A DNA stretch of 46,657 nucleotides from a virus: UHGV virus genome UHGV-0180138; one strand, 5' to 3'. Position 1 is the first letter of the stretch. The number at the start of each line of letters is the position of its first letter. The notes under the pieces were generated by a model. It made no database searches, had not been told where the DNA came from, and saw only the letters and a list, made by a program, of their open reading frames with translations. The position numbers and the translations under genes are program-made. Shown here in pieces: positions 2,586 through 43,200 of the stretch.

Positions 2586-3247
2586 AAACAGAGTTACATA
2601 AAAAACTATGGACGATTCAGCAAACGCTGAACGCGCCGAAGAATCAGCGTAATAATTTTGGCGGGTATAATTACAGGTCGGCGGAGGATATTTTAGAGGC
2701 GGTTAAACCACTGCTTCAAAATATCACGCTGACTGTTAGTGATGAAATTGTCCTGATCGGCAATCGCTATTATGTGAAAGCTACGGCGACGCTAAGCGAC
2801 GGTGAAGACGTAATAGCGGTAACTGCTTATGCCAGGGAGGAAGAAAGCAAGAAGGGTATGGATGCCAGCCAGCTAACAGGAGCAACATCAAGTTACGCGC
2901 GGAAATATGCTTTGAACGGTTTATTCTGCATAGATGATGCTCGCGATCCTGATACTGATGCTTACGCGAAGCAGACAGGCCAGCAGCCGCGACAACAGAA
3001 AAACCCACCAAAACAACAACCTAAGCAGCAAGGGCAACAACAAGGTCAGCAGCCGAAAGCGCCGCCAAATCCTGATGAAGTGTTGGCGCGTTTCTGTGAT
3101 GCGGCAGCGAAAGCGCCGGACGCTAACAAGTTGCGCGAGATCTTCGGCAAGTGCTGGAAGCTACTGCCTAAAGATTCAGAACAGCAACAGAAAGCGAAAG
3201 ACGTTTATGACATTCGCTTAAAAGAAATTAACGGGGAGATCAGTTAA
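2582..3247 (+). CDS. erf: Erf-family single-strand annealing protein
   Basis: 221 aa; GATSSYARKYALNGLF motif typical of Erf family; GTG start with AAGGAG SD; Gln/Pro-rich linker before C-terminal domain. Confidence 0.8.
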   Translation: MKTELHKKLWTIQQTLNAPKNQRNNFGGYNYRSAEDILEAVKPLLQNITLTVSDEIVLIGNRYYVKATATLSDGEDVIAVTAYAREEESKKGMDASQLTGATSSYARKYALNGLFCIDDARDPDTDAYAKQTGQQPRQQKNPPKQQPKQQGQQQGQQPKAPPNPDEVLARFCDAAAKAPDANKLREIFGKCWKLLPKDSEQQQKAKDVYDIRLKEINGEIS

Positions 3248-3654
3248 TGAGTTTAAATTCAATTACGCTGGGCGGGAATATCGGTAATGATATGGAGGTT
3301 CGCTACACGCAAAACGGAAAAGCGATTGGTAGTTTTCCGTTAGCTGTAACGAATGGCTACGGCGATAATAAGCGGACAATGTGGGTCACTTGCCTGGTAT
3401 TTGGCGAGCGTGCGGAAAAATTAGCGCCACATATCCGCAAGGGTGGGAAAATTGTTGTAAGCGGTCGCCTGGATGTTCGGCAATATGACCGGAACGACGG
3501 CACAAAAGGGACGGCGGTTGAAGTGGCGGTTAACGAATTCGAATTTATGAACGTTAACCAACAGGGCCAGCAGCAGAAAGCGCCACCGCCGCAGCAGAAT
3601 AATAACGGGAATAATCCGCCACCGATGGACTTCGATGACGATATCCCGTTCTGA
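3247..3654 (+). CDS. ssb: single-stranded DNA-binding protein
   Basis: 135 aa; OB-fold N-terminal region, Gln/Pro-rich linker and acidic tail DFDDDIPF diagnostic of SSB. Confidence 0.9.
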   Translation: MSLNSITLGGNIGNDMEVRYTQNGKAIGSFPLAVTNGYGDNKRTMWVTCLVFGERAEKLAPHIRKGGKIVVSGRLDVRQYDRNDGTKGTAVEVAVNEFEFMNVNQQGQQQKAPPPQQNNNGNNPPPMDFDDDIPF

Positions 3655-3669
3655 TTAAATAGGTTAGCG

Positions 3670-3948
3670 ATGGGTGATTATTTAAAAGCGCCACCGCCAC
3701 CACGAACAAAAGAGCAAGTATTAAAAGAAGCCCGTGATCAAATCGATCATGGGCTTTTTTTATGCGGCACGGCAGCGGATCGGATGGCAAAAAGATTTAG
3801 TGACCTGTACGCAAAGCAAATATGGTTCGACAACTGGCAGGCAAGTTTTTACCCACTACAGAAAGCTGATGATATGCATTGGCCTGAATATGTCGATCCA
3901 CGTATGCGCAAATATCGCGGGCGTATGGGCCAGGTTATTAACGATTAA
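3670..3948 (+). CDS. hypothetical protein
   Basis: 92-aa ORF in gene train. Confidence 0.5.
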   Translation: MGDYLKAPPPPRTKEQVLKEARDQIDHGLFLCGTAADRMAKRFSDLYAKQIWFDNWQASFYPLQKADDMHWPEYVDPRMRKYRGRMGQVIND

Positions 3949-3961
3949 TGAGGTGTTAATC

Positions 3962-4213
3962 ATGACAGCTACAACATTAAGCGAAAATAACGGTAGAGGT
4001 TTTCAGAGAACTGCGGAAAGCCTTGATGATAGTGATGTATTTGTTGATTTCGGCGGCGGCAACTATGAATTCGAAACGTCTGCGGGCTGGGTTGATAAAT
4101 GGCCTTTCCCTACTCGACAGGAATTAAGCGAACGTAAATCATTTGGCGAAGATGCCGAACGCCTGGCGAATAATAAATGGTTGGATAGATTTATTTCGGA
4201 GGCTGAAAAATGA
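3962..4213 (+). CDS. hypothetical protein
   Basis: Start moved to ATG 3962 (SD GAGGTG) within track ORF 3734-4213. Confidence 0.5.
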   Translation: MTATTLSENNGRGFQRTAESLDDSDVFVDFGGGNYEFETSAGWVDKWPFPTRQELSERKSFGEDAERLANNKWLDRFISEAEK

Positions 4214-9880: not shown

Positions 9881-9961
9881 GTTTACAAAATGGCGTCATT
9901 GCGTGATGCGGATCACATAATGGCGCTTTTTGCCTTGTTTTGGGGTATCCATTTTGTATAC
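9881..9961. promoter_or_regulatory. inverted pair of conserved motif (GTTTACAAAATGGCG at 9881-9895 plus; GTATACAAAATGGA at 9961-9948 minus)
   Basis: Direct reading; intergenic gap after methyltransferase gene. Confidence 0.5.
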
Positions 9962-32040: not shown

Positions 32041-32055
32041 ATCCGGGCGTTTTGC
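32032..32055. terminator. bidirectional terminator hairpin
   Basis: GCCCGG-tagat-CCGGGC with T-run on plus strand and T-rich flank on minus strand; separates convergent genes. Confidence 0.5.
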
Positions 32056-32429
32056 TAATTGAAATCTTTAATTGCTGTACCTGGTGAACTGTGTGTGATT
32101 GTATTGTATACAGACTTTGCCTTACTGCGATCTTTCCATTCTTTTAGGATGCAGTTATCAAACTTTGCGATAACCCTTGAAGGGGATAATTCTTCAACAT
32201 CCATGTAAGTAAATCCTATCGTGCTGGTTACTGAATACCATACGTGATAACTATAATTACCGTCATGCTCGATTCTTTGTGGTTCCCCCATTATTTTATT
32301 CACTTGCTCACAAGTCATTCCAACTTGCAATTTTTTATCAGCTAACTTAACGAAATCAGTTGATCTTGCGCACCCTGTAAGAGCTAAAGCCATAACACCA
32401 ATGAGAACCGCTTTGATTATGTTTTTCAT
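32055..32429 (-). CDS. lipoprotein with BamE/SmpA-OmlA-like domain
   Basis: Signal peptide plus lipobox LTGC; LQVGMTCEQVNKIMGEPQRIE resembles BamE-family motif. Confidence 0.55.
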   Translation of the reverse strand: MKNIIKAVLIGVMALALTGCARSTDFVKLADKKLQVGMTCEQVNKIMGEPQRIEHDGNYSYHVWYSVTSTIGFTYMDVEELSPSRVIAKFDNCILKEWKDRSKAKSVYNTITHSSPGTAIKDFN

Positions 32430-32439
32430 GATTTACCCC

Positions 32440-33099
32440 TTAATTCCAGTTGCAAGCGTTTTTCACTTTGTCGATGTGGTTATAAAGACCATCAATGTTA
32501 AACACCGCTTTCTCAATGTCGCCAGCTTCCGGCACTACTTCAATGATGAATTGTTTTTCGTTAACCATTTTTTTAATCATTGGGATGGCTTTTTTGCCGT
32601 CCCATAATCCAAGAGCTTTATAATTAGTTGACCGTCCCCACTCAGTAGCTACAGCTTTGTGAACGCCGATCCGGTAGTTAATATAAGTAGTGTCCCCGGC
32701 GTCAGTTACATGGTGTGACCATGCTACGAACATTTTTGTTTTATTACCCTGGCAAGCGATTGTTAATACCGGTTTATTCTTATCCTGTGCCTTCAGTGTC
32801 GGGAAAGCATCAAGACTTCCGCTGAATTGTTCTGCTTTCACAAAAAGGAATACGTTTTTTGCGTCCTGCATATCATCTTTTCTTTCAACTACAAGCCACT
32901 GTTTACCAGCATTTTCTTTTTCTAACTGTGCATCGTATGCGGCTTGTTTTGCTTGTTGTTCTGCAAGCCATTTAGCATTTTTCTCTGCTAATGCTTGTTG
33001 TTCTTGATTGGTCACTATAGGCGCTTTTTCATTATCCTCATTGCAACCAACCAGACCCAATACCGCCGCAATCATTGCCACTTTTGCTAACCGTTTCAT
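32440..33099 (-). CDS. lipoprotein (219 aa)
   Basis: Signal peptide plus lipobox LVGC; Gln/Ala/Lys-rich linker then globular domain. Confidence 0.6.
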   Translation of the reverse strand: MKRLAKVAMIAAVLGLVGCNEDNEKAPIVTNQEQQALAEKNAKWLAEQQAKQAAYDAQLEKENAGKQWLVVERKDDMQDAKNVFLFVKAEQFSGSLDAFPTLKAQDKNKPVLTIACQGNKTKMFVAWSHHVTDAGDTTYINYRIGVHKAVATEWGRSTNYKALGLWDGKKAIPMIKKMVNEKQFIIEVVPEAGDIEKAVFNIDGLYNHIDKVKNACNWN

Positions 33100-33146
33100 A
33101 ACCCACCACGCTAACTTGATTTACTGACCTTTCCCTTTGGCTTCCT

Positions 33147-33186
33147 TATACAAAATGGAGTCGTTGAAGTAAAGCCATTTTGTATA
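33147..33186. promoter_or_regulatory. perfect inverted repeat of conserved motif: TATACAAAATGG (33147-33158) / CCATTTTGTATA (33175-33186), 16-bp spacer
   Basis: Direct reading; between leftward lipoprotein genes and rightward tape measure gene. Confidence 0.55.
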
Positions 33187-33226
33187 AAATAGATACACAG
33201 ATCACATTTTTGCATGAGGTTAAATC

Positions 33227-35572
33227 ATGGCTACCAGTGTAGGTACAATTTATTACGAAGTTGATGCAAAAACTGGTCAACTTCTCGTTGCACAACGACA
33301 GGCAGACCAGGCCTTTGACCGTATAGAGCGCGGCGCAAAACAGGCTGACCGCCAGGTAAACACCCTGAAAACATCCATCAAGGCACTGACCAGGGTTATC
33401 CATTTGCTAATTGCTGCGGAGGCTGTGCGCCAATTTATGGATATGGCGGAGCAAGCAAAAATGCTTCGCGTAAAAATCAAAATGCTTACGGGCGATGCGG
33501 AGTCCGCCGGACGGGTTTTCGACGGCCTGAAAGCAATATCCAGGGAAACGGGGCAGAGCCTGAAGGATACTGGCGAACTATGGCAGGGCCTGGCTATCTC
33601 ACTGAAGAACACGTCAGCTACGGAAGGGCAATTGCTTAACCTGGTTGGCACTATTCAGAAAATGGGGGCGTTAGGCGGCGCATCAGCGGAACAGATGTCT
33701 AACTCTATGCGCCAGTTCCGCCAGTCTATAGACGGCGGCGTGCTGCGTGCTGAAGAATTTAACAGCCTACTTGAAAACACCCCGACCATCGTACAAACAA
33801 TGGCCCGCCATATGGGATTATCAATGGGCCAGTTCCGCGCTGAAATGCTGGACGGCAAGATCACGGCAGAAAGGATGGTTAACGCAATCCAGGCGGCTAC
33901 GCAGGAAACAAACGAGCAGTTCGCGCAGTTGCCTCGCACATCCGGTATGGCTATCAATGAGCTTAAAGTCGAAATCATGGGCCTTGTTGAGCAGCTTGAT
34001 GATCTTTTCGGCGTATCAGATGGCGTAGTCTCAGCTATCGACTTGATCACAAAAGGCGTTAAGGGGTTAGGTGAGGGCGCTAAATTCGCTAAAACCTGCT
34101 TCGATACACTCAAAACGGCTGGTGGCGAATTCATCGACATGTTTGATGATGTGGCTGTGAAGGCTGGCGAGGTGGCAGAGAAGATCATCGCAATGGTGAC
34201 GCCAATCAAGGCGCTTATGGACGCTTATAAATGGATGAAGGAGGTTGTAGATAAGCGCAAGGAAGAACTAAATAACAATCCTACAAAAATGTTCGGACCG
34301 TTAGTAGGCCAGGTGATGACGCTTAAAAATGATCTCGATGCAGTTCGCAAGAAAGGTGAGGAAGCGAAAGAAGCGTTAACTGCACCAGATGACGGAACTA
34401 TTACCGGATTCGATAAGCCAGTGGACAAGCCTAAAAAGGGTAAGAAAACTGGCAGCAAGAAAAGCAAAGAGGATACGCTTGGTGACAAAGGCATAAGCGT
34501 TTCCGACATGTACAACAGAGACGCCGCCGCCATGCGCAAAGCGTTAGAGAACGGAAAAGCCATTGATGCTGCGTTCGCCCAGGGAAAAATAACCCTGCTT
34601 GAGTACCGCGCCGCTCAAAAGGGGATTGGCAAGGAACTGAAGGAAGAATTAGCACAGATTCCGGTAGATGAATTGCGTGATAAATGGTCGCAAATAGTTA
34701 GCCCGATGGACCAGCTAAAAGGCGAAGTTAACCCCATCCAGCAGGCACAAAATGAATGGGCCGTCCGTAAGCAAATGCTTATCGACCTGGGCGCTACCGA
34801 AGCGCAACAGAAACAGGAATTGTTAGCCTATGAGCAGCAGATCCGCGATCTGAAATGGGAGCAATGGCAGGCGCAAAGCCAGACAAACGGCCTGATCGGT
34901 GATTGCGTTAATGGCCTTAAAGGTGGTATGAGCAATGCGCTTGTTGGCCTGTTAAACGGCACTCAATCATTGAGTGATGTTTTTGCTAACTTAGGCAGCA
35001 ATATACTTGGGAATATCGGTAACAGACTTTCGGACATAGCTGCCAACTGGATAGCAGATCAAATCATGATGGAGACACAAAGCAAAGCCACGCAGGCCAG
35101 CACAACGGCAAGCGCGGTTGCCGCTCAGGGAAGCATTGCGGCGGCGGCGGCCCCAGCCGCGGCGGCAACTGCGGCATCAACTGGCGGCAGCTGGGCGGCG
35201 GCTGGTTCGGCGGCACTTACCGCGATCATGTCGCTGGCTACGTCAATTTTTGGTGGCGGGCGTTATAATGGTGGTTCGGTTAACGGTGGTAGCCTGTATC
35301 GCGTAGGGGAACACGGTAAGCCGGAATTATTCCAGACTAATAACGGTCGTCAGTATATGATACCTGGCGAAAATGGCAGAGTAATTCCTAATCGTGACAT
35401 TGGCGGCGGCGGTGGCATCAACATGCCAGTGACCATCAACGTCCAGACCACGAACGGATTCAGCGACGATGACAGCCGCAGACTTGAGCAGACGATGGAA
35501 CGTGTAGCTATGAAGATGATAACAAGGGAATCTCAAAGACCGGGCGGAATGTTGCAACCGCGCCGCAAATAA
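33227..35572 (+). CDS. tail tape measure protein
   Basis: 781 aa, largely alpha-helical with Gly/Ala-rich C-terminal part; precedes M-L-K-I-J block; SD GAGG. Confidence 0.85.
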   Translation: MATSVGTIYYEVDAKTGQLLVAQRQADQAFDRIERGAKQADRQVNTLKTSIKALTRVIHLLIAAEAVRQFMDMAEQAKMLRVKIKMLTGDAESAGRVFDGLKAISRETGQSLKDTGELWQGLAISLKNTSATEGQLLNLVGTIQKMGALGGASAEQMSNSMRQFRQSIDGGVLRAEEFNSLLENTPTIVQTMARHMGLSMGQFRAEMLDGKITAERMVNAIQAATQETNEQFAQLPRTSGMAINELKVEIMGLVEQLDDLFGVSDGVVSAIDLITKGVKGLGEGAKFAKTCFDTLKTAGGEFIDMFDDVAVKAGEVAEKIIAMVTPIKALMDAYKWMKEVVDKRKEELNNNPTKMFGPLVGQVMTLKNDLDAVRKKGEEAKEALTAPDDGTITGFDKPVDKPKKGKKTGSKKSKEDTLGDKGISVSDMYNRDAAAMRKALENGKAIDAAFAQGKITLLEYRAAQKGIGKELKEELAQIPVDELRDKWSQIVSPMDQLKGEVNPIQQAQNEWAVRKQMLIDLGATEAQQKQELLAYEQQIRDLKWEQWQAQSQTNGLIGDCVNGLKGGMSNALVGLLNGTQSLSDVFANLGSNILGNIGNRLSDIAANWIADQIMMETQSKATQASTTASAVAAQGSIAAAAAPAAAATAASTGGSWAAAGSAALTAIMSLATSIFGGGRYNGGSVNGGSLYRVGEHGKPELFQTNNGRQYMIPGENGRVIPNRDIGGGGGINMPVTINVQTTNGFSDDDSRRLEQTMERVAMKMITRESQRPGGMLQPRRK

Positions 35573-35577
35573 CACTA

Positions 35578-35604
35578 AGGCCGCTTATAGCGGCCTTTAT
35601 TTTA
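35578..35604 (+). terminator. rho-independent terminator after tape measure gene
   Basis: AGGCCGC-ttata-GCGGCCT followed by TTATTTT. Confidence 0.65.
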
Positions 35605-35889
35605 CATGGTGAGAATATAAATCAAACAGCACAGGAATACAGGTGCGGCGAAGTCGCAAACGCTAGCCATATTCCATGCTTTAGGTAAGAATCCGCCATA
35701 CCACGGCATTCTTTCCCGTTTTCCACCGCAAAATTCCGCTATGTAACGATATTCAGCCTGCGTGTGTTCCCGTGCAAAAAAGAATGTACATCCAATCAGG
35801 CCGCCAGTGAGATAATCACCAGTAAGCAGGCCGATAACAACCTGCATAGCCGCCGCAGCAAGTGCGTGACCAATAACGGTTAAATCCAT
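35602..35889 (-). CDS. small membrane protein
   Basis: 95 aa, three hydrophobic segments; last gene of leftward cassette. Confidence 0.5.
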   Translation of the reverse strand: MDLTVIGHALAAAAMQVVIGLLTGDYLTGGLIGCTFFFAREHTQAEYRYIAEFCGGKRERMPWYGGFLPKAWNMASVCDFAAPVFLCCLIYILTM

Positions 35890-35891
35890 AG

Positions 35892-36077
35892 TTAATCCCC
35901 CTGATCGTTCTCAAATGTGCCATCTACAAATTTTTGAAGCCCGGCGATAAGTTGTGTAGCCTGCGATTTTTCAATTACGATGGTGTCACTCCCCATAAGT
36001 TCGGTTATCCACAGCCGGTCATTCTCATCAAGATCTAACCTAACTCCGTAACATAACTCTGTTTCGTCAATAATCAT
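35892..36077 (-). CDS. small acidic protein
   Basis: 61-aa ORF in leftward cassette. Confidence 0.45.
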   Translation of the reverse strand: MIIDETELCYGVRLDLDENDRLWITELMGSDTIVIEKSQATQLIAGLQKFVDGTFENDQGD

Positions 36078-36186
36078 TTTTCCCCCTATAATCTTCCGTT
36101 ACGTGCGATGTACCCCCTGCCGAACATCACTAGCCAGATGTTCCAGATCTCACGCCAGGTATATTTCTCATCCTCCATACCCCACC

Positions 36187-36441
36187 TCACTTATGGCAAC
36201 CGCGCACGCCAGATAATTCATTAAATTTGTGATGCTCGACGATTACCCATGCTTTCAAGTCTTGGCTATAAACACGCCAATCTAAATTGGCGCGGAAGGC
36301 GTAGCCGTAGCCGTCCTTTAATTTTTTGGGTGCAACATCTTTGTTTAAAAACGCGTTCAGAAGTTCTTTTGCTTTTTTGATTACGTGTCCAGGTGCGTTT
36401 TTCTGTGCTTTCAGGTTTTTGTCAATCGCTACCAGTTTCAT
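36187..36441 (-). CDS. RelE/YoeB/ParE-superfamily toxin-like protein (candidate)
   Basis: 84 aa; pattern VIKKAKELLNAFLNKD...KKLKDGYGYAFRANLDWRVYSQDLKAWVIVEHHK resembles RelE/ParE fold (helices then strand with W/Y-R-V-Y and V-I-V-x-x-H); SD GGGGTGAG; motif-level only. Confidence 0.35.
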   Translation of the reverse strand: MKLVAIDKNLKAQKNAPGHVIKKAKELLNAFLNKDVAPKKLKDGYGYAFRANLDWRVYSQDLKAWVIVEHHKFNELSGVRGCHK

Positions 36442-36458
36442 AACTCACCCCATCATCC

Positions 36459-36614
36459 TTAGTTAAGTTCCTTCAGGAAGAAGTCCCGGTATTCATCTTC
36501 TTTCGCATTCATCATGAATTGACCGTATTTGAATGCGTCGTCGAAACCCTTAACGATTGCTATTTCCACTTGTTCGAATGCGTTGTTTAGCATTACCACT
36601 ACATAGCGTTTCAT
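36459..36614 (-). CDS. small protein, possible partner of downstream toxin-like gene
   Basis: Start set at ATG 36614 after strong SD AAGGAGG (track ORF extends to 36689); 51 aa. Confidence 0.45.
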   Translation of the reverse strand: MKRYVVVMLNNAFEQVEIAIVKGFDDAFKYGQFMMNAKEDEYRDFFLKELN

Positions 36615-36684
36615 TTTGGGCCTCCTTCGTTGGTACTGCTTTTCTTCTTGCTTTCTGTATACATCTTGTTTAGTGCCATGTGAA

Positions 36685-36699
36685 GCCATTTTGTAAACT
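36685..36699 (-). promoter_or_regulatory. conserved motif AGTTTACAAAATGGC (minus orientation) at head of leftward cassette
   Basis: Reverse complement of GCCATTTTGTAAACT; oriented with the leftward genes. Confidence 0.5.
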
Positions 36700-36725
36700 A
36701 GCTATAATCATTGTGATGTAGATCT

Positions 36726-36757
36726 CATTTTTCGCGTAGAAGCGCGTAAAGATATAT
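36726..36757 (+). promoter_or_regulatory. second copy of conserved element (CATTTTTCGCGTAGAAGCGCGTAAAGATATAT) upstream of tail gene M
   Basis: 27 of 31 positions identical with 23859-23889. Confidence 0.45.
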
Positions 36758-36782
36758 ACAAAGTGTAACTTATGGGGGTTTT

Positions 36783-37136
36783 ATGCCGGAAGTGTTCAGA
36801 TGGACGCCGCAACGAAGCTACAGCGTGACCAGGGAGCCAGACGTATCTGTTGTTAAGCTGGGCGATGGTTATGAGCAAAGACAGGTAAAAGGTATCAATC
36901 CATTGCTTGATAGCTACACCCTGGTGTTTAAAGGCAGTAGCGCCGGATGTGGTGATAGTGGAAACGTAGCAATCCAGGCGGAAGCATTCTTGAGGGCGCG
37001 CGGCGCGGTCGAGGCTTTTTACTGGTCGCCGTCGATGGATAACGTGCAAAGGCTTTTTGTTTGCCGTAGTTGGAGCATGACCAAAGACGGACCGCTATAC
37101 ACGCTAAACGCAACATTTGAGCAAGTTATTAATTAA
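36783..37136 (+). CDS. minor tail protein M (lambda gpM-like)
   Basis: FRW...GDGYEQRQ...FYWSPS...FEQVIN parallels lambda gpM (FRW...FGDGYSQR...FLWTPP...FEQVVN). Confidence 0.8.
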   Translation: MPEVFRWTPQRSYSVTREPDVSVVKLGDGYEQRQVKGINPLLDSYTLVFKGSSAGCGDSGNVAIQAEAFLRARGAVEAFYWSPSMDNVQRLFVCRSWSMTKDGPLYTLNATFEQVIN

Positions 37137-37146
37137 GGGAGGGGAT

Positions 37147-37329
37147 ATGCCTTATTTTTGTGTAGTGGAGCGCACTGGCGCTTTTACATTGTTTGCCGAC
37201 TATGAAATTAATGATCTCACTGTACGGGCTGATAACGGTGAGACGTGGTATCTCCATGATATGGGTGATGGATATGTTGGCTGTACGACATGGGACGGAA
37301 AAGAAGTAGCATTTCTATCCTACGATTAA
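37147..37329 (+). CDS. hypothetical small protein
   Basis: ATG 37147 after SD GGGAGGGG; 60 aa. Confidence 0.45.
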   Translation: MPYFCVVERTGAFTLFADYEINDLTVRADNGETWYLHDMGDGYVGCTTWDGKEVAFLSYD

Positions 37330-37356
37330 AAAACACCCCGCGAGAAGCGGGGTTTA
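37327..37356. terminator. terminator hairpin (mainly for leftward cassette)
   Basis: ACCCCGC-gagaa-GCGGGGT; A-run upstream gives T-run on minus strand; near-identical stem to terminator at 44815. Confidence 0.55.
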
Positions 37357-37429
37357 TAGTGTTGATAGCAGAATGCATAACAATCCAATAATGATAATAA
37401 TCATTTCCAGAACGTAATGTTCGCACATC

Positions 37430-37678
37430 TCATAACGCCCCCTTCAAATATGTCAATCCCTTATCAGTGACGAATGAATGATTCACCTGGTTTTCATCCG
37501 TCATGATGATGAATAACTTTTCCTGTAGGTGTTTCGCTTTCGGGTACAGCGTTAAGCAGACCTGGTACAAAATCCCGCGCTCAATCAGCAAATCAATAAA
37601 TTCGTGCTCATGATAACCGATAAGGCGGGCGGCCTGTTTCAACGTGTATACATAGTCACCGTGATTGCGCCGCGCCAT
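37430..37678 (-). CDS. putative HTH DNA-binding protein
   Basis: 82 aa; YTLKQAARLIGYHEHEFIDLLIERGIL resembles an HTH. Confidence 0.45.
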   Translation of the reverse strand: MARRNHGDYVYTLKQAARLIGYHEHEFIDLLIERGILYQVCLTLYPKAKHLQEKLFIIMTDENQVNHSFVTDKGLTYLKGAL

Positions 37679-37686
37679 ATTGCCAC

Positions 37687-38049
37687 CTATTTATCGAAGC
37701 AGCCTAAGTTATCAATACAGAAGTCTTTAGCGGCTTTTTCGTATTCCTGTTTTGCTTTCGGATCGTCTGCCGGGAAACCTTTCGCGTGTATTTCACCAGG
37801 GCAAGACTGGTCCATAGAATCTGCATAATAAGCAGTGAAGCTACTATTAATATCTTTCGGGTTCATAGCGTTGTCCTCGTCTGGTTCGTCGTCTGGTATT
37901 TCTATCGGGTTAACTGTAAAGTCACATGCTCTGTTCCAGCACCGGAGAATCTCAAGTCCTTCTCCGCGTGCATTTTCATACGTTTCGAATAACCCCAGGT
38001 ATTCCCATTCTTGCCTATCAGTCCAAACATCTAAGCGCCATTTTCTCAT
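37687..38049 (-). CDS. hypothetical acidic protein
   Basis: Start set at ATG 38049 after SD GGTGGG (track ORF extends to 38103). Confidence 0.45.
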   Translation of the reverse strand: MRKWRLDVWTDRQEWEYLGLFETYENARGEGLEILRCWNRACDFTVNPIEIPDDEPDEDNAMNPKDINSSFTAYYADSMDQSCPGEIHAKGFPADDPKAKQEYEKAAKDFCIDNLGCFDK

Positions 38050-38218
38050 TTCGCCCACCATTGAATTTAATAGGTTTAATCCGGTAGCCCATGACTCGAT
38101 CATCTTTTTCTGATAGGTCTAAGGCCGTATCTAATGCGTCGCCAGGATTATCGAATTCAGCCTCGACATCACGCCCATTACTCATAAATAAGGTGAGTAT
38201 CCATAACTTATCATTCAT
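38018..38218 (-). CDS. hypothetical small protein
   Basis: 66-aa ORF, first gene of leftward cassette. Confidence 0.45.
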   Translation of the reverse strand: MNDKLWILTLFMSNGRDVEAEFDNPGDALDTALDLSEKDDRVMGYRIKPIKFNGGRNEKMALRCLD

Positions 38219-38232
38219 CCTGCGCCCCTTGT

Positions 38233-38247
38233 TCCATTTTGTTAACT
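38233..38247 (-). promoter_or_regulatory. variant of conserved motif (AGTTAACAAAATGGA, minus orientation) upstream of leftward cassette
   Basis: One-base variant of GTTTACAAAATGG; oriented with leftward genes. Confidence 0.4.
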
Positions 38248-38348
38248 TACCCTCCGTTTGAGTAAAATATACATATTGTAAAAACCGCGATCAATCCATT
38301 TTGGTATGATTTAGCGTGACGCAGATCACAAAATCAGAAGGTGAATAA

Positions 38349-39053
38349 ATGCGCAATATACCTACAGAAATGATTATTGATTCCGTCGATGCCGGAGTCG
38401 GCGCGGTCATTGACCTGTTCGAACTGGACCTTACGCCAATGGGTGGCGAGGTTATCCGCTTCCATTCCGGCGCAAACGGCTATTACGGCCCGGTTATCTG
38501 GAAGGGCGTGGCTTACAACAGCTACCCGATCGAGGCGACGGGCTTCGAAATGAAAAACGAGGGTGTTTATTCGCGTCCTCAAATGGTTGTAGCCAACATT
38601 GGCGGGCTAATCACAGGGATGAATAACGATTTCAACGACCTGCGAGGAATGAAGGTTACGCGCCGCCAGGTGGAGGTTAAATACCTGGACGCCGTTAACT
38701 TCCCTAACGGCAATCCAGACGCAGATCCATCTATTGAGGCTGTATCTTTTTACGTCGTTGAAGCAATGAGCGAAGAAACAGCGGATCAGGTGCAATATGA
38801 ATTGTCAACGCCAATTGATGCAGATAAAGCCGTTATCCCAGGGCGCACCATCCTTGCTGACGTTTGTCAGTGGCAATACAGAGGCGACGGGTGCATGTAT
38901 TCTGGCGGCCCGGTCGCAACTGATAAAGATACACCAACAAGTGACCCAACGTTAGACAAATGCAGCCACCGCCTTAGCGGTTGCCGTTTGCGTTTTCCGC
39001 GTCCGGCAGCACTGCCGATCTCCTGTTTCCCTGGTTCCAGCAAGGTAGGTTAA
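38349..39053 (+). CDS. minor tail protein L (lambda gpL-like)
   Basis: LFELDLTPMGGE...GFE...TGM...LDAVNFPNGNPDADP...PGR..LA..CQWQYRGDGC.YSG...PTSD..DKCSHRLSGC parallels lambda gpL. Confidence 0.85.
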   Translation: MRNIPTEMIIDSVDAGVGAVIDLFELDLTPMGGEVIRFHSGANGYYGPVIWKGVAYNSYPIEATGFEMKNEGVYSRPQMVVANIGGLITGMNNDFNDLRGMKVTRRQVEVKYLDAVNFPNGNPDADPSIEAVSFYVVEAMSEETADQVQYELSTPIDADKAVIPGRTILADVCQWQYRGDGCMYSGGPVATDKDTPTSDPTLDKCSHRLSGCRLRFPRPAALPISCFPGSSKVG

Positions 39054-40273: not shown

Positions 40274-43200
40274 ATGAGTAGCGGCGGCGGCAAAGCCAAA
40301 ACACCAACATTATTGAACGATAACCTGTATCATAAACAGTTTTATCGTGTTTTAGATATTCTCAGCGAAGGGCCGATATACGGTCCGGTAAACCAGAAAG
40401 CGCCACTGAATGACGTGATGCTTAATGACACGCCTGTTACTGACGCAAACGGGAATACATCAATCCCGGGGATTAGTATAGCCTGGCGCAACGGCACGGC
40501 TGATCAATCTCCGATTAATGGTTTTAATGCCATCGAGTCAACCGTTATTGTCAACGCAAAGGTAACTCACGACACGCCAATAATCAGGACTGTTTCAGAT
40601 CCAAACGTTACCCGCGTCAGGTTGAATCTTGGTGTTGATGCTCTCGTTCAATCAGATAATAAGGGCAACCAATATAATACATCTGTCATGTTGATGGTGG
40701 ATGTTAAACCGTCATCATCTTCTACGTGGTCGCTGGTTAAAGATATACACATTGGTCCTGGTAAACAAAGCGGTGAATATCTGGAAGCTCACATCATTAA
40801 AGCGCCGGATGAAAAACCGTTTGATATTCGCGTTCGTCGCGTAACACCAGACAGCAACAGTGATCTATTGCAGAATGATACGCGGTGGAGTAGCTACAGC
40901 GAAATCATAGACGATAATCTGTCTTATCCTCATACCGCTGTAGCTGGCGCCGTAATTGACCATGATCAGTATACTGATACGCCTACCCGCACCTATCACC
41001 TTCGTGGCCTGATTGTTGATGTGCCTGACAACTACAACCCTGAAACGCGCACATATTCAGGTTTATGGCTTGGTGGATTTAAAAAGGCGTATACCAATAA
41101 CCCTGCATGGCTTTTCCGGTATCTGGTTAAAAACGAGCGCTTTGGGCTTGCTCGACATGCTGGTTACATTGATGTTGATGATGGCGCTTTGTACGTGCTT
41201 TCTCAATACTGCGATCAGTTGGTTGATGATGGCTATGGTGGCCTTGAACCTCGCATGACGCTTAACGCTTACATTACAGAGCAAATGAGCGCCCGCGATT
41301 TACTGGACAATATCGCCGGGATGTTCCGAGGCATCGCGTTATGGGACGGACAACGCCTTACCGTGATGATTGATGCGCCACAAGACCCGATCGCCACCAT
41401 CACAAACGCAAACGTCGTTGATGGTGCGTTCACTCGTTCAAGTATCGCCCGAGCAGAATGCTACAACGCCGTGATTGTATCATGGACTGACCCGGAAAAC
41501 GGCTGGGAGCAATCAAAAGAGTATGTGGCAGATGATGAGCTAATCGCCCGTGATGGTTATAACGAAACCACGTTGGAGGCGTTCGGGTGCACTTCACGCG
41601 GGCAAGCGCACCGCGCTGGTAAATGGCTGATAGAAACAGCAAAACGCGAGCCGTCAAAATTCACGTTTAAAATGGCCCGTGATGCGATTCACTTTACGCC
41701 AGGGGATATAATCGAGATCCTCGACAATAACCGCGCAGGCGCGCGTTTAGGCGGTCGTATCGTGGCGAACAATGGGAAAGTGATAACGGTCGATAAAGTC
41801 GATTCAGAATACATTGCAGCAGGCGACACCATCAGTTTACTTGATGGCGATGGCAAATTTAAAAAACATCAGATCACTGGTGTTAACGGGAACAAAATCA
41901 CACTGGCAGCAGCCCCGGCATGGATTCGGAACGGTACTGTTTTTGCTGTATCAACCGAATCTGCAAAACCCGTTTTATGTCGAATCATCAGCGTAGCAGA
42001 AACTGAAAACAACAGCGTGTACACCATCGAAGCAGCGCAACATGACCCGAAAAAACAAGCAGTAGTCGATGAAGGCGCTATATTTGAAATCAACAACGAC
42101 ACGCTTAATCACTTCCGCGTGCCGAGCATTGAAAATCTGAAGGTGGTAAACATTGGATCTGAAACGGTTCAATGCCGCGCAACATGGGAGACACAGACAA
42201 CAACACATCGCATGACCTTTGAGATCCGCATATATAACACAGATGGTGCGGTTGTTAAAAGCTACGAAACAACGAAATACAGTTATGATTTTTATGGCAT
42301 CGACGCTGGCGCGTATTCGTTAGGCGTTCGCGGAAGAAATGATACTGGCATGAAGGGCGCTGAAAGTATTGTTGATCTTGTTATTGGTGCGCCAGCCTCG
42401 CCAATAGGCGTTAACTGGGTTCCAGGTGTATTTCAGGCTACAGTGTACCCGATAAGCAAAACAACGCTAACAACTGATACAGCGTATGAGTTCTACTATG
42501 CAGGGAAAAACCAGATTACAGATCCTGCAAAAATAACCACGTCTGCGCAGTTTACCGGGCGCGGGTATCAGTGGACGTTCGGTGGAATGAACACGGGCCA
42601 TACTTATTACGTTTATGTGCGCACGCGCAATGCCTTTGGCGTGTCAGACTTCGTTGAGGCGTCAGGTAAGCCAACTGAAAACTTCGATGAAATCAGCGAC
42701 TATGTCACCAAAGACGTGATGAACTCAGAGCAATTTAAGGAATTGGTAAGTGATATTAAGGATCTTGGTGATCGCACTGATATTATAGAAAGCGCAACCG
42801 CCGACCTTAAAACAGCAACCGCCGACCTTAAAACAGCTACAGATGGCCTTAAAACTGATACAGATACACTTAAAAAAGACACCGAAGACCTTTATAAAAA
42901 AGTCGAAGAAAACGCCGATGGAATAGGCAAACATGAGGTAAGAATAGACTCATTAGAGGTATCAAACGAAAACGTTAATAACGAACTGGCACAGACAAAA
43001 GCAAGTTTACAAAACGCTTCGCTTGCTCTGATCAACAACTCGCTTGCTCAAACTAACACGCGGGTTACTCTTACCGCTCAATATAAGAAAGGTCGCAACG
43101 AAACAAAGGCACAGATTGACCGTATCGACAACGTTATCGCAGATGAGAAAAAATCGACAGCGGAATCACTGGAAACCATCACAGCAGAAATAAGCGCGAT

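Follow-up and report, generated by a model that had tools for sequence, protein, structure and literature searches.

Which role might a group of leftward genes play when it lies between two tail genes of a temperate phage, and does it belong to the tail machinery or to the cargo carried within it? This question is raised by positions 37430-38218 of UHGV virus genome UHGV-0180138, a DNA of 46,657 nucleotides that is referred to here as the window. Our analysis places the window among the mEp021-like (mEpimmI) coliphages, temperate phages with E. coli as host.

A leftward gene block at the M-L junction

The block is bordered on the left by tail gene M (36783-37136, plus strand; PF05939, E 8.6e-28) and on the right by tail gene L (38349-39053, plus strand; PF05100, E 4.3e-71). 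Between them we found minus-strand genes for proteins of 66, 120, and 82 amino acids (genes 1 to 3) and an additional ORF of 24 amino acids (gene 4). The three minus-strand genes that had been predicted to interrupt M-L synteny are located where they were placed, and M and L are nearly contiguous in one close relative and in 16 of 36 outgroup loci, as described below. The fourth small ORF was overlooked in the earlier reading, as was a plus-strand partner ORF of 60 amino acids. The G+C content of the M-L block is 0.41-0.46, compared to 0.50-0.52 for the adjoining tail genes, and it is low in all three leftward blocks within the tail region. Across 43-45 related loci (dS 0.3-0.8), the median dN/dS is 0.10 for the 82-aa gene and 0.21 for the 66-aa gene, while the N and C halves of the 120-aa gene have values of 0.22 and 0.12, respectively. 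Since dN/dS is low across related loci, our data indicate that the leftward ORFs are real genes under purifying selection rather than chance ORFs.

We found the cassette in all but one of 45 close relatives. The exception, a 53.9-kb contig of metagenomic origin (L039) whose L protein is 94% identical, lacks the whole block; its M-L gap is 132 nt, and it retains a promoter remnant. In the next-closest phage group (L approximately 71% identical), the M-L gap is 46 nt in 16 of 36 loci and the other 20 loci contain unrelated inserts at this junction. Most of those examined are pairs of convergent ORFs on the plus and minus strands; a NucC-like PD-(D/E)xK nuclease is among them. These data indicate that the M-L junction is a cargo hotspot in related phages. 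The original prediction proposed a comparison with insert-free relatives and named conservation of the genes in all relatives, as tail-assembly components, as the outcome that would speak against it. We found instead that the cassette is missing in L039 and in the nearest outgroup, a pattern that speaks for an accessory insert at a hotspot and against tail machinery, yet the cassette is carried by all but one of the close relatives. Its absence from one otherwise syntenic relative, the metagenomic L039, argues that it is apparently dispensable for tail building.

Because the cassette is nearly fixed in the family, and because a KilAC-like gene is listed among the 59 core proteins of a manual pangenome of 48 genomes (PMC11893012), the cassette is an old, retained insert and not a sporadic one. 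It also occurs in 35 of 5,426 complete E. coli genomes. The extra genes within the cassette vary among relatives, with some of them separating the 120-aa from the 82-aa gene, and one relative (L032) contains remnants of an HNH homing endonuclease within the block.

Products of the cassette and of the partner ORF

Gene 1 (38018-38218, minus strand) was delimited by its ORF model and encodes an acidic protein of 66 amino acids that belongs to PHROG 29559 (function unknown). It consists of a 51-aa core and a 15-aa extension gained through stop-codon loss; the product is 51 amino acids long in most relatives, and the form found in the window overlaps gene 2 by 32 nt. Gene 2 (37687-38049, minus strand), defined by family search and alignment, starts at MRKWRL, which is equivalent to the MQKYSL start of relatives. 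Its 120-aa product is acidic, as originally described, with a pI of 4.3 and a net charge of -13. The protein is composed of a variable beta-beta-alpha-beta domain (residues 1-52), an acidic linker, and a C-terminal module (residues 62-120, referred to here as the C module) in which Cys83, His88, and Cys111 are conserved. Among relatives, amino-acid identity has a median of 47% in the N-terminal domain and 90% in the C module. AlphaFold models residues 1-50 with pLDDT above 90 and the C-terminal part with low confidence. Gene 1 aligns with the N-terminal domain of gene 2 over 46 columns (hhalign E 2.9e-5, probability 74%); on profile comparison it is a paralogue of this domain, and the 66-aa protein and the N-terminal domain probably represent a duplicated, fast-diverging pair.

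Fold searches with the 120-aa protein were uninformative, and several candidate relationships were rejected. The protein had been considered as a relative of HepS/Tai (HEPN), but the match to HepS had an E value of 0.37 in a profile search against PDB sequences, the aligned part lacks Rx4H, and direct BLASTP against phi80 TaiEcA and AtiEcA gave no match. Matches of the C module to a multihaem cytochrome and to OmpA-like repeats (SMDQSC..H; HAKGxPADD) are short motif coincidences. The HAKG..PADD stretch is an optional insertion that is missing from 50-aa stand-alone forms of the C module. The 51-aa gene that comes first in the H-M cassette was likewise dismissed as a paralogue (hhalign probability below 1%).

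The C module is also found in other phages as stand-alone proteins of 48-66 amino acids, and it is accompanied by small membrane peptides in unrelated phages. The unrelated contexts in which both occur include a Mu-type portal and PhoH/ClpP genes, and examples are a PhoH/ClpP phage contig (L088) and a 137-kb contig (L094). L088 has no megablast match to isolated phages, and L094 matches them solely via a lipoprotein gene. This gene follows the pair in L094 and is 84-86% identical at the DNA level to lipoprotein genes of mEpimmI-family phages; the copy in MagusPhagus lies just downstream of J. A tblastn search with the 82-aa protein found no KilAC near the C module in L084-L089, and none of the genes called near the C module in L091-L095 has a KilAC/ANT match on record. 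These data suggest that the C module is mobile as a pair with the small membrane peptide that ends the cassette. Since the pair adjoins a superinfection-exclusion lipoprotein homologue in another phage, there is a hint, which we regard as doubtful, that it may act in the envelope, entry exclusion, or counter-defence. The phages with a C module include probably virulent ones, so a role in the lytic cycle would fit at least as well as one in the lysogen.

Gene 3 (37430-37678, minus strand) is the most conserved gene of the cassette and encodes a stand-alone KilAC (ANT) protein of 82 amino acids. It scores 28.1 bits against Pfam PF03374, above the gathering threshold of 25.3, with residues 10-79 aligned to positions 23-102 of the 108 in the model, and its database relatives bear the same Pfam tag. 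A predicted fold that resembles MerR/excisionase winged HTH domains agrees with the HTH-like character that had been assigned to this protein. In GenBank and RefSeq the gene is already labelled 'putative antirepressor' or 'KilAC domain-containing'. The protein consists of the KilAC domain only, and we found none of the fusions to KilA-N, Bro-N, AntA/B, or pRha by which canonical antirepressors, of the P1 Ant/KilA and P22 Ant type, are recognised.

Several characterised proteins carry a KilAC domain. AriS inhibits the SOS response through its KilAC domain (PMC9043618), growth is inhibited by the KilA-C domain of phi11 Gp07 (PMC5944126), and CreP, a stand-alone KilAC protein, is a bacteriostatic inhibitor of cell division (bioRxiv 10.1101/2024.01.05.574328). 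Like the 103-aa CreP of A. baylyi, the gene 3 product consists of KilAC alone; however, it is shorter than CreP and the C-terminal parts of AriS (Listeria phage phi10403S) and phi11 Gp07 and is distant from them in sequence. By analogy with these proteins, we tentatively propose the 82-aa protein as the likeliest effector of the cassette. Alternatively, it might regulate its own operon as an HTH protein bound to the palindrome over the -10 hexamer, a notion that we consider rather questionable.

The newly identified gene 4 (37354-37428, minus strand) encodes a hydrophobic peptide of 24 amino acids, MCEHYVLEMIIIIIGLLCILLSTL, with a GRAVY of 2.06. It is preceded by the RBS GAAGGGGG, and its stop codon abuts the terminator. 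The gene is open in 14 related loci, with pN/pS of 0.17-0.46 at pS of 0.66-0.79, and 23 related loci contain an unrelated membrane peptide of 38-49 amino acids in its place. Overall, in 7 of 44 loci the small membrane-peptide gene has a frameshift or no start codon. No match to isolated phages was found by tblastn of the 24-aa peptide, probably due to low-complexity filtering. The plus-strand partner (37147-37329) lies directly after M, is convergent to the cassette, and encodes an acidic protein of 60 amino acids that belongs to PHROG 3249 (function unknown). This ORF has a strong RBS (AAGGGAGG) and a dN/dS of 0.07, and it is gained and lost jointly with the cassette, with both missing in L039 and the outgroup.

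Promoter region and terminator

A promoter scan placed a core promoter of the sigma-70 type upstream of gene 1 (38266-38294, minus strand), with TTGATC as the -35, a 17-nt spacer, and TATATT as the -10. The generic scan is not enriched over shuffled sequences (4 found, 5.4 expected), and the case for this promoter comes from its conservation in relatives rather than from the scan: both hexamers are unchanged across 34 distinct related sequences. The unit had also been described as headed by a variant of a conserved motif. Indeed, TACCAAAATGG (38296-38306, minus strand) is a one-base-insertion form of TACAAAATGG; it is located at about -48 to -38, adjoins the -35 on its upstream side, and is conserved in relatives. 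At seven or more further promoter-like sites of the window, the TACAAAATGG motif (TAC(C)AAAATGG type) directly adjoins the -35. It also heads the early promoter that precedes the N-like gene, and a variant is found upstream of the repressor gene. Given these other locations, the motif is uninformative on when the unit is expressed.

Further upstream we found a CRP-like site, TGTGATCTGCGTCACG (38315-38330, minus strand), which matches 9 of the 10 half-site positions of TGTGA-N6-TCACA. Its half-sites are invariant in the 34 distinct relatives and the 6-nt spacer varies. The window contains seven CRP-like sites, compared to 1.6 expected from shuffles, and five of the seven are in regulatory gaps. 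With the transcription start placed from the -10, the centre of the site lies at approximately -63.5 (-62.5 in relatives without one A), which puts it 1-2 bp away from -61.5, where class I sites classically lie. Promoter, transcription start, and CRP dependence are all predictions from sequence. The -10 is overlapped by a palindrome, TACAATAT-GT-ATATTTTA (38263-38280), a candidate operator that is the sole such site in the window. Its core is found in every related locus, and the palindrome is a perfect 8-2-8 in relatives with G at the variable position. We sought operators of the main repressor in positions 650-2150 and found no clear repeated operator; none is defined in PMC11893012.

The cassette ends at a predicted bidirectional intrinsic terminator (37328-37353). 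Its hairpin (37335-37353) has a 7-bp G+C stem, ACCCCGC-n5-GCGGGGT, with a T6 run behind it on the minus strand and TTTATA behind it on the plus strand; folding yields -14.2 and -14.6 kcal/mol, with z of about -4.3. Among relatives the stem is kept and the loop varies. A hairpin after J (44815-44832, plus strand) with a calculated energy of about -14 kcal/mol, ACCCCGC-n4-GCGGGGT followed by TTTATA, has the same stem and differs in its loop, n4 instead of n5, in line with the near-match that was initially noticed.

Interpretation of the cassette and relation to known systems

At the sequence level, the cassette has its own promoter and terminator, is missing in syntenic relatives, deviates in G+C, and has a C module and membrane peptide that recur in unrelated phage contigs, which are the features of a moron. 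We think it probable that the cassette is an autonomous moron-type accessory operon that lies antisense within the late tail operon, forming a non-contiguous operon. Host RNA polymerase would transcribe the unit leftward while late transcription is off, in the lysogen and/or in early infection, and the upstream TGTGA-N6-TCAC site would probably let CRP-cAMP boost this transcription. During late growth, Q-type antiterminated transcription from the left would pass the bidirectional hairpin, collide with the leftward unit, and damp it. The products of the cassette would target the host or competing phages and not the virion. The cassette proteins matched no PADLOC, NCBIfam, or function-annotated PHROG family.

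The promoter motif that is common to the cassette and the early promoter upstream of the N-like gene would also suit an early lytic accessory operon for anti-defence or host takeover, expressed only once infection or induction has occurred and otherwise kept silent by the prophage repressor. Stand-alone C-module genes are found among the small genes of large, probably virulent phage contigs, where lysogen functions would be senseless, and small acidic proteins whose N-terminal domains diverge as fast as those described above are typical of arms-race proteins. Furthermore, the palindrome over the -10 could serve as a repressor operator; however, it is unique to the cassette promoter and missing at the early promoter, so control by the main repressor is not indicated, and the operator consensus of that repressor is not defined (PMC11893012). 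Since no known anti-defence family was matched, and dN/dS below 0.25 does not demonstrate positive selection, we consider an early lytic operon improbable. The same palindrome would suit autoregulation of a toxin-antitoxin or abortive-infection module, in which a KilAC toxin would be restrained by the acidic 120-aa protein, with the disordered C module folding onto KilAC. Stand-alone KilAC proteins are toxic in the cases of CreP (bioRxiv 10.1101/2024.01.05.574328) and phi11 Gp07 (PMC5944126), and the acidic upstream partner resembles many antitoxins in having a folded N-terminal domain and a conserved tail that is modelled at low pLDDT. No other parts of the cassette are as conserved as the C module and the KilAC protein, and these two occur together in 44 of 44 cassette-bearing loci. 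Their co-occurrence is not obligate, however, since the C module has no KilAC neighbour in L084-L089, L091, and L094, and an extra gene lies between the 120-aa and 82-aa genes in some relatives. Moreover, Pfam, PADLOC, and NCBIfam gave no match to a toxin-antitoxin or abortive-infection family (a UPF0175 match of 17 bits is below the cut-off of 27.9), and a module of this type is decidedly unlikely.

The position between the tip genes M and L, the presence in 44 of 45 close relatives, and the core status of the KilAC-like gene in the published pangenome (PMC11893012) could be taken to mean that these are conserved tail-assembly or structural accessory factors, such as chaperones of the tip complex. 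This is very unlikely, given that the block is oriented against the late operon from its own promoter to its own terminator, is variable in gene content, and is missing from L039 and the nearest outgroup, which have the same M and L genes. In addition, the C module and membrane peptide occur in phages of unrelated genome context, and KilAC domains serve in regulation or act on the host rather than having a structural role. Nor do the broken membrane-peptide genes in 7 of 44 loci, the homing endonuclease remnants in L032, and the deletion of the whole block in one relative make a convincing case that the block is selfish or decaying filler that now serves no function: purifying selection acts on each of the four genes and on the plus-strand partner, and both the promoter and the terminator have been conserved at a dS of 0.3-0.8 in the adjoining genes, so that we regard filler as extremely unlikely. 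Returning to the accessory operon, a more specific and, in our judgement, unlikely version would be that the C module and membrane peptide, together with KilAC and the duplicated domain, form an unrecognised mobile system for exclusion, defence, or counter-defence. Temperate and virulent coliphages would exchange this system, its expression would respond to CRP and run antisense to the late tail operon, and the 60-aa ORF would provide self-immunity in the manner of a Tai/Ati-like pair.

The cassette is a well-delimited example of a familiar, ordinary kind of feature. Phage mEp021 (MH706966, gp71-gp74) and other mEpimmI phages and prophages have the same three gene families at the same M-L position and in the same orientation, and the DNA of the region is 84-88% identical between mEp021-type cassettes and the window. 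The window differs in that the 51-aa gene is extended to 66 amino acids, mEp021's extra gene gp72 is absent, and the membrane peptide has 24 amino acids in place of the 45 in mEp021, in which that gene exists without annotation. The published literature assigns no function to any of the mEpimmI cassette genes (PMC11893012). The moron concept and HK97 gp15 have been reviewed (PMC3594210). With tail-cluster morons of the HK97 gp15 type, the cassette shares an independent unit between late genes that is missing in syntenic relatives, lower G+C, horizontal spread, and a small membrane protein. Unlike HK97 gp15, it comprises four genes instead of one, is antisense to the late operon, and is nearly fixed; the likeness drawn here is one of architecture. 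Near-fixation (44 of 45 loci) is unusual for a purely optional moron.

A second parallel is offered by phi80, in which taiEcA runs counter to the late operon under Q control; the gene is active in the lysogen, and supplying Q lowers its expression (PMC11364771). As with phi80 taiEcA/atiEcA, a unit of opposite orientation interrupts the late operon and a small late-operon ORF is adjacent, here the 60-aa ORF, but the phi80 pair sits before the packaging genes and the unit in the window lies between M and L. Neither TaiEcA, which has 204 amino acids and an RNDLAH motif, nor AtiEcA is similar in sequence to the M-L block proteins compared: BLASTP against phi80 orf63/orf64 covered the 66-, 120-, and 82-aa proteins, the 60-aa ORF product, and the other leftward proteins of the tail region, and found nothing for the four from the M-L block. 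The best phi80 match overall (E 0.008 in a two-sequence database) was to an unrelated 84-aa protein of the H-M block.

Cargo antisense to late operons has repeatedly proved to encode prophage functions in defence or exclusion; HK97 gp15 and phi80 Tai are examples. For this reason, a near-fixed, selected unit of four genes that includes a candidate KilAC effector and a small protein and membrane peptide that move horizontally as a pair is a reasonable place to seek a new host-directed or phage-competition function. The cassette is also a candidate site for catabolite (CRP) control of prophage accessory genes. In a collection isolated from human faeces, mEpimmI phages reportedly equal lambdoid phages in frequency (PMC11893012).

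A predicted antisense transcription unit between tail genes M and L

The window belongs to a temperate Escherichia coli siphophage of the mEp021-like group (mEpimmI), and its segment 36700-39100 shares 84-88% DNA identity with MagusPhagus, mEp515, mEp013, mEp554, mEp044, mEp010, and mEp021. Its tail region contains the tape-measure gene (33227-35572), M (36783-37136; PF05939), L (38349-39053; PF05100), K and I, and J (40274-44809). Three leftward blocks (32055-33099, 35602-36614, and the cassette between M and L) lie in this region, each with a G+C content below that of the surrounding tail genes. Our data show that the M-L cassette has its own conserved promoter and terminator, is antisense to the late operon, and carries genes under purifying selection.

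The original prediction placed three minus-strand ORFs between M and L, and we confirmed them as a 66-aa gene that starts the unit (38018-38218), a 120-aa gene (37687-38049), and an 82-aa gene (37430-37678). Relatives set the gene model of the 120-aa protein, whose start, MRKWRL, is the counterpart of their MQKYSL. In most relatives the product of the first gene is 51 aa long, and several further C-terminal extensions are present in its family; in the window its stop codon is lost, giving a 32-nt overlap with the next start. Its true start is uncertain by 6-7 codons, since many relatives have an in-frame upstream ATG (MARRCEM...). In those relatives, this ATG replaces a mini-ORF of the window, ATGGAACAAGGGGCGCAGGATGAATGA (MEQGAQDE; 38219-38245), which runs from 38236 across the start codon of the 66-aa gene in a different frame. 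Across 43-45 related loci, median dN/dS was 0.21 for the 66-aa gene, 0.22 and 0.12 for the N and C parts of the 120-aa gene, and 0.10 for the 82-aa gene, with reference values of 0.07 for M and 0.04 for L. All three ORFs are real genes.

A fourth gene was overlooked in the original prediction. This 24-codon minus-strand ORF, MCEHYVLEMIIIIIGLLCILLSTL (37354-37428; ribosome-binding site GAAGGGGG), begins two bases past the stop codon of the 82-aa gene and runs right up to the terminator stem. It is open at exactly 24 codons in 14 related loci, with pS of 0.66-0.79 (synonymous sites near saturation) and pN/pS of 0.17-0.46. At 23 other loci, among them those of all six Mexican mEp phages, the last position of the cassette belongs to an unrelated 38-49-aa membrane peptide (MKIEVLALI...); a frameshift or the loss of the start codon affects its gene in 7 loci. 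The 45-aa version at the cassette 3' end of mEp021 (MH706966 42732-42866) is unannotated in the GenBank record.

The unit ends in a minus-strand hairpin, ACCCCGC-TTCTC-GCGGGGT, followed by T6 (37353-37335; -14.2 kcal/mol, z = -4.35), in which the loop changes among relatives while the stem is kept. As had been claimed, the ACCCCGC/GCGGGGT stem is also that of the plus-strand hairpin after J (44815-44838; ACCCCGC-TACA-GCGGGGT-TTATA), and on the plus strand the cassette hairpin reads as the stem and then TTTATA, exactly as after J.

The 130-nt gap ahead of L is strongly conserved across 34 distinct related sequences. On the minus strand it contains a CRP-like site, TGTGATCTGCGTCACG (38330-38315), then TACCAAAATGG (38306-38296), and then a -35 TTGATC and a -10 TATATT separated by 17 nt (38294-38266). 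TACCAAAATGG, directly before the -35, is the variant of a conserved motif that had been predicted at the cassette head. Across the -10 lies an 18-bp palindrome, TACAATAT-GT-ATAT(T/G)TA (38263-38280), which occurs once in the window, is kept in every relative, and is a perfect 8-2-8 in about a third of them. This palindrome may be the operator of a regulator specific to the cassette, for example, the 82-aa HTH-like protein.

The 10-nt motif itself, TACAAAATGG, always abuts a -35-like hexamer. It lies immediately 5' of the -35 at at least seven other promoter-like sites (1757, 9886, 9956, 16648, 33151, 33182, and 36693), with the cassette copy at 38303 and a variant at 909-923. All three leftward tail cassettes carry it, as does the early promoter ahead of the N-like gene; a variant precedes the repressor gene, and one copy stands before the region at 16.6 kb, which possibly contains lysis or late genes. 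The motif is probably a shared promoter-upstream element, and it is located at about -48 to -38, which we take to be the position expected of a proximal UP-element subsite.

Among the 34 distinct relatives, the TGTGA/TCAC half-sites of TGTGATCTGCGTCACG are invariant and its 6-nt spacer is variable, which we read as the footprint of a CRP-type dimer-binding site. Its center is at approximately -63.5, with the start inferred from the -10, and is thus near, yet off, the classical class I position. We found seven CRP-like sites (TGTGA-N6-TCACA) in the window (954, 5865, 9902, 13135, 16625, 36712, and 38315); 1.6 were expected, and none of 200 shuffles gave more than 5. Regulatory gaps contain five of the seven, among them the sites heading two leftward tail-region cassettes, one that precedes the repressor gene, and one that separates the divergent motif copies at 9886 and 9956. 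These data suggest catabolite control of several phage promoters; CRP is unmentioned in the published paper on the mEpimmI phage group (PMC11893012).

Distribution and exchange of the cassette

We compared 45 close loci, from 3 GenBank phages and 42 IMG/VR contigs and not all independent of one another; 44 have the 120-aa and 82-aa genes. The predicted interruption of M-L synteny was borne out by comparison with relatives. In L039, a close relative (IMGVR_UViG_3300045988_076424, a 53.9-kb contig; M 97% and L 94% identical), the M-L gap is 132 nt, and a natural clean deletion (3860-4000) has removed a plus-strand 60-aa ORF together with the terminator and every leftward gene. The promoter remains with its CRP-like site and motif, now directed into the end of M. 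Within the next-closest group (L approximately 71% identical), M and L are 46 nt apart in 16 of 36 loci, and inserts of 179-1302 nt occupy the junction in the other 20. In most of the inserts examined, a small plus-strand ORF and a leftward ORF converge. One contig of this group, L058, encodes at 3024-3830 (minus strand) a 268-aa NucC-like PD-(D/E)xK nuclease (DUF6602; PADLOC PD_DExK, E 2.7e-26), a defense-like gene that is convergent with a 110-aa plus-strand ORF; other cargo includes an aspartyl-protease-like protein and a Cys-rich protein. The M-L junction is a cargo hotspot. Gene content also varies within the mEpimmI cassette; the extras are a gene of 75-81 aa that separates the 120-aa gene from the 82-aa gene, genes of 58 and 67 aa, and HNH remnants. 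Prophages with the cassette were found in 35 of 5,426 complete E. coli genomes. The KilAC-like protein was among 59 core proteins identified manually in a published pangenome of 48 genomes, outside the confirmed 50-gene core and with no function given (PMC11893012). Overall, one relative with otherwise conserved synteny and many outgroup loci lack the cassette, part of which has undergone horizontal exchange.

The 120-aa protein has a small family, with 54 clusters in one search and 15 representatives in an exhaustive one, every source-named member being from E. coli. Residues 1-50 are confidently predicted to form a beta-beta-alpha-beta domain and diverge fast (47% median identity); an acidic linker joins this N domain to a near-invariant C module (37687-37872) with conserved Cys83, His88, and Cys111 and a low-confidence structure prediction. 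The 66-aa protein aligns end to end with the N domain (hhalign E 2.9e-5, probability 74%), giving moderate support to a tandem duplication. Stand-alone homologues of 48-66 aa in contigs of other uncultured phages start at the same residue as the C module, an internal Met that is almost invariant (MNPKDIN or MKYDIDN). This suggests that the 120-aa protein is a gene fusion, and translation might also start separately inside it.

Stand-alone C modules of 50-56 aa were found in three large contigs of unrelated phages, L094, L088, and L091. In L088 (4001-4325; a phage encoding PhoH and ClpP) and L094 (5001-5581; a 137-kb contig), the module is directly followed by a 47-aa membrane peptide of the same family as the peptide ending the cassette of mEp phages. 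The gene after the peptide in L094 encodes an 82-aa lipoprotein with 84-86% DNA identity to mEpimmI-family lipoprotein genes, the one in MagusPhagus being located just 3' of J; superinfection exclusion has been assayed for lipoproteins of this family (PMC11893012). L091 (5001-5440) has the module and peptide, the peptide gene apparently disrupted, followed by the same ACCCCGC...GCGGGGTTTAT hairpin. The C module and small membrane peptide therefore behave as a mobile pair that needs no KilAC gene, and these contigs indicate recent gene exchange between phage types.

Possible roles

We propose that the cassette is a moron-type unit read by host RNA polymerase while late transcription is off, its promoter possibly boosted by CRP-cAMP. 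At the sequence level it corresponds to a moron (PMC3594210), and it shares the architecture of a non-contiguous operon. Convergent antiterminated late transcription would damp the cassette, as has been demonstrated for the opposite-strand taiEcA of phi80 (PMC11364771). BLASTP of the 66-, 120-, and 82-aa proteins and the plus-strand 60-aa ORF against the phi80 proteins gave no Tai/Ati homologue. The plus-strand 60-aa ORF that follows M comes and goes with the cassette and would hold the position of a late-expressed partner; its co-inheritance may instead reflect physical linkage alone.

The 82-aa protein matches KilAC (PF03374), and isolated KilAC domains have been reported to inhibit SOS (PMC9043618), to block cell division bacteriostatically (bioRxiv 10.1101/2024.01.05.574328), and to inhibit growth (PMC5944126). 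By analogy, it may act on the host. Autoregulation is the main alternative, because the protein has an HTH-like fold and a unique palindrome covers the -10. It is not a canonical two-domain antirepressor. The C module, the membrane peptides, and, in one case, the homologue of an exclusion-family lipoprotein hint at an envelope or entry-related role. No cassette protein matched toxin-antitoxin, defense, or anti-defense families, and database records already list the orthologues, labeled as hypothetical or KilAC proteins. The original observation was confirmed and its interpretation is supported overall: the cassette is a better-delimited example of a familiar kind, of note for its mobile C module and membrane-peptide pair, its CRP-like control, and its near-fixation as an antisense operon that seems dispensable.

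Other leftward blocks of the tail region

A second leftward cassette (35577-36760), between the tape-measure gene and M, has four ORFs, all matching PHROGs of unknown function: 51 aa (36459-36614), 84 aa (36187-36441), 61 aa (35892-36077), and a hydrophobic 95 aa, probably a membrane protein (35602-35889). Its head carries TACAAAATGG (36693) and a CRP-like site (36712), and it ends in a bidirectional hairpin (35577-35597). The ORF finder's 76-aa ORF begins within the motif, and the homologous gene is the 51-aa version. The third block (32055-33226; G+C 0.38-0.41) holds 219-aa and 124-aa genes, also matching PHROGs of unknown function, just upstream of the tape-measure gene. Between this pair and the tape-measure gene, two inverted motif copies, at 33151 (+) and 33182 (-), suggest divergent promoters.
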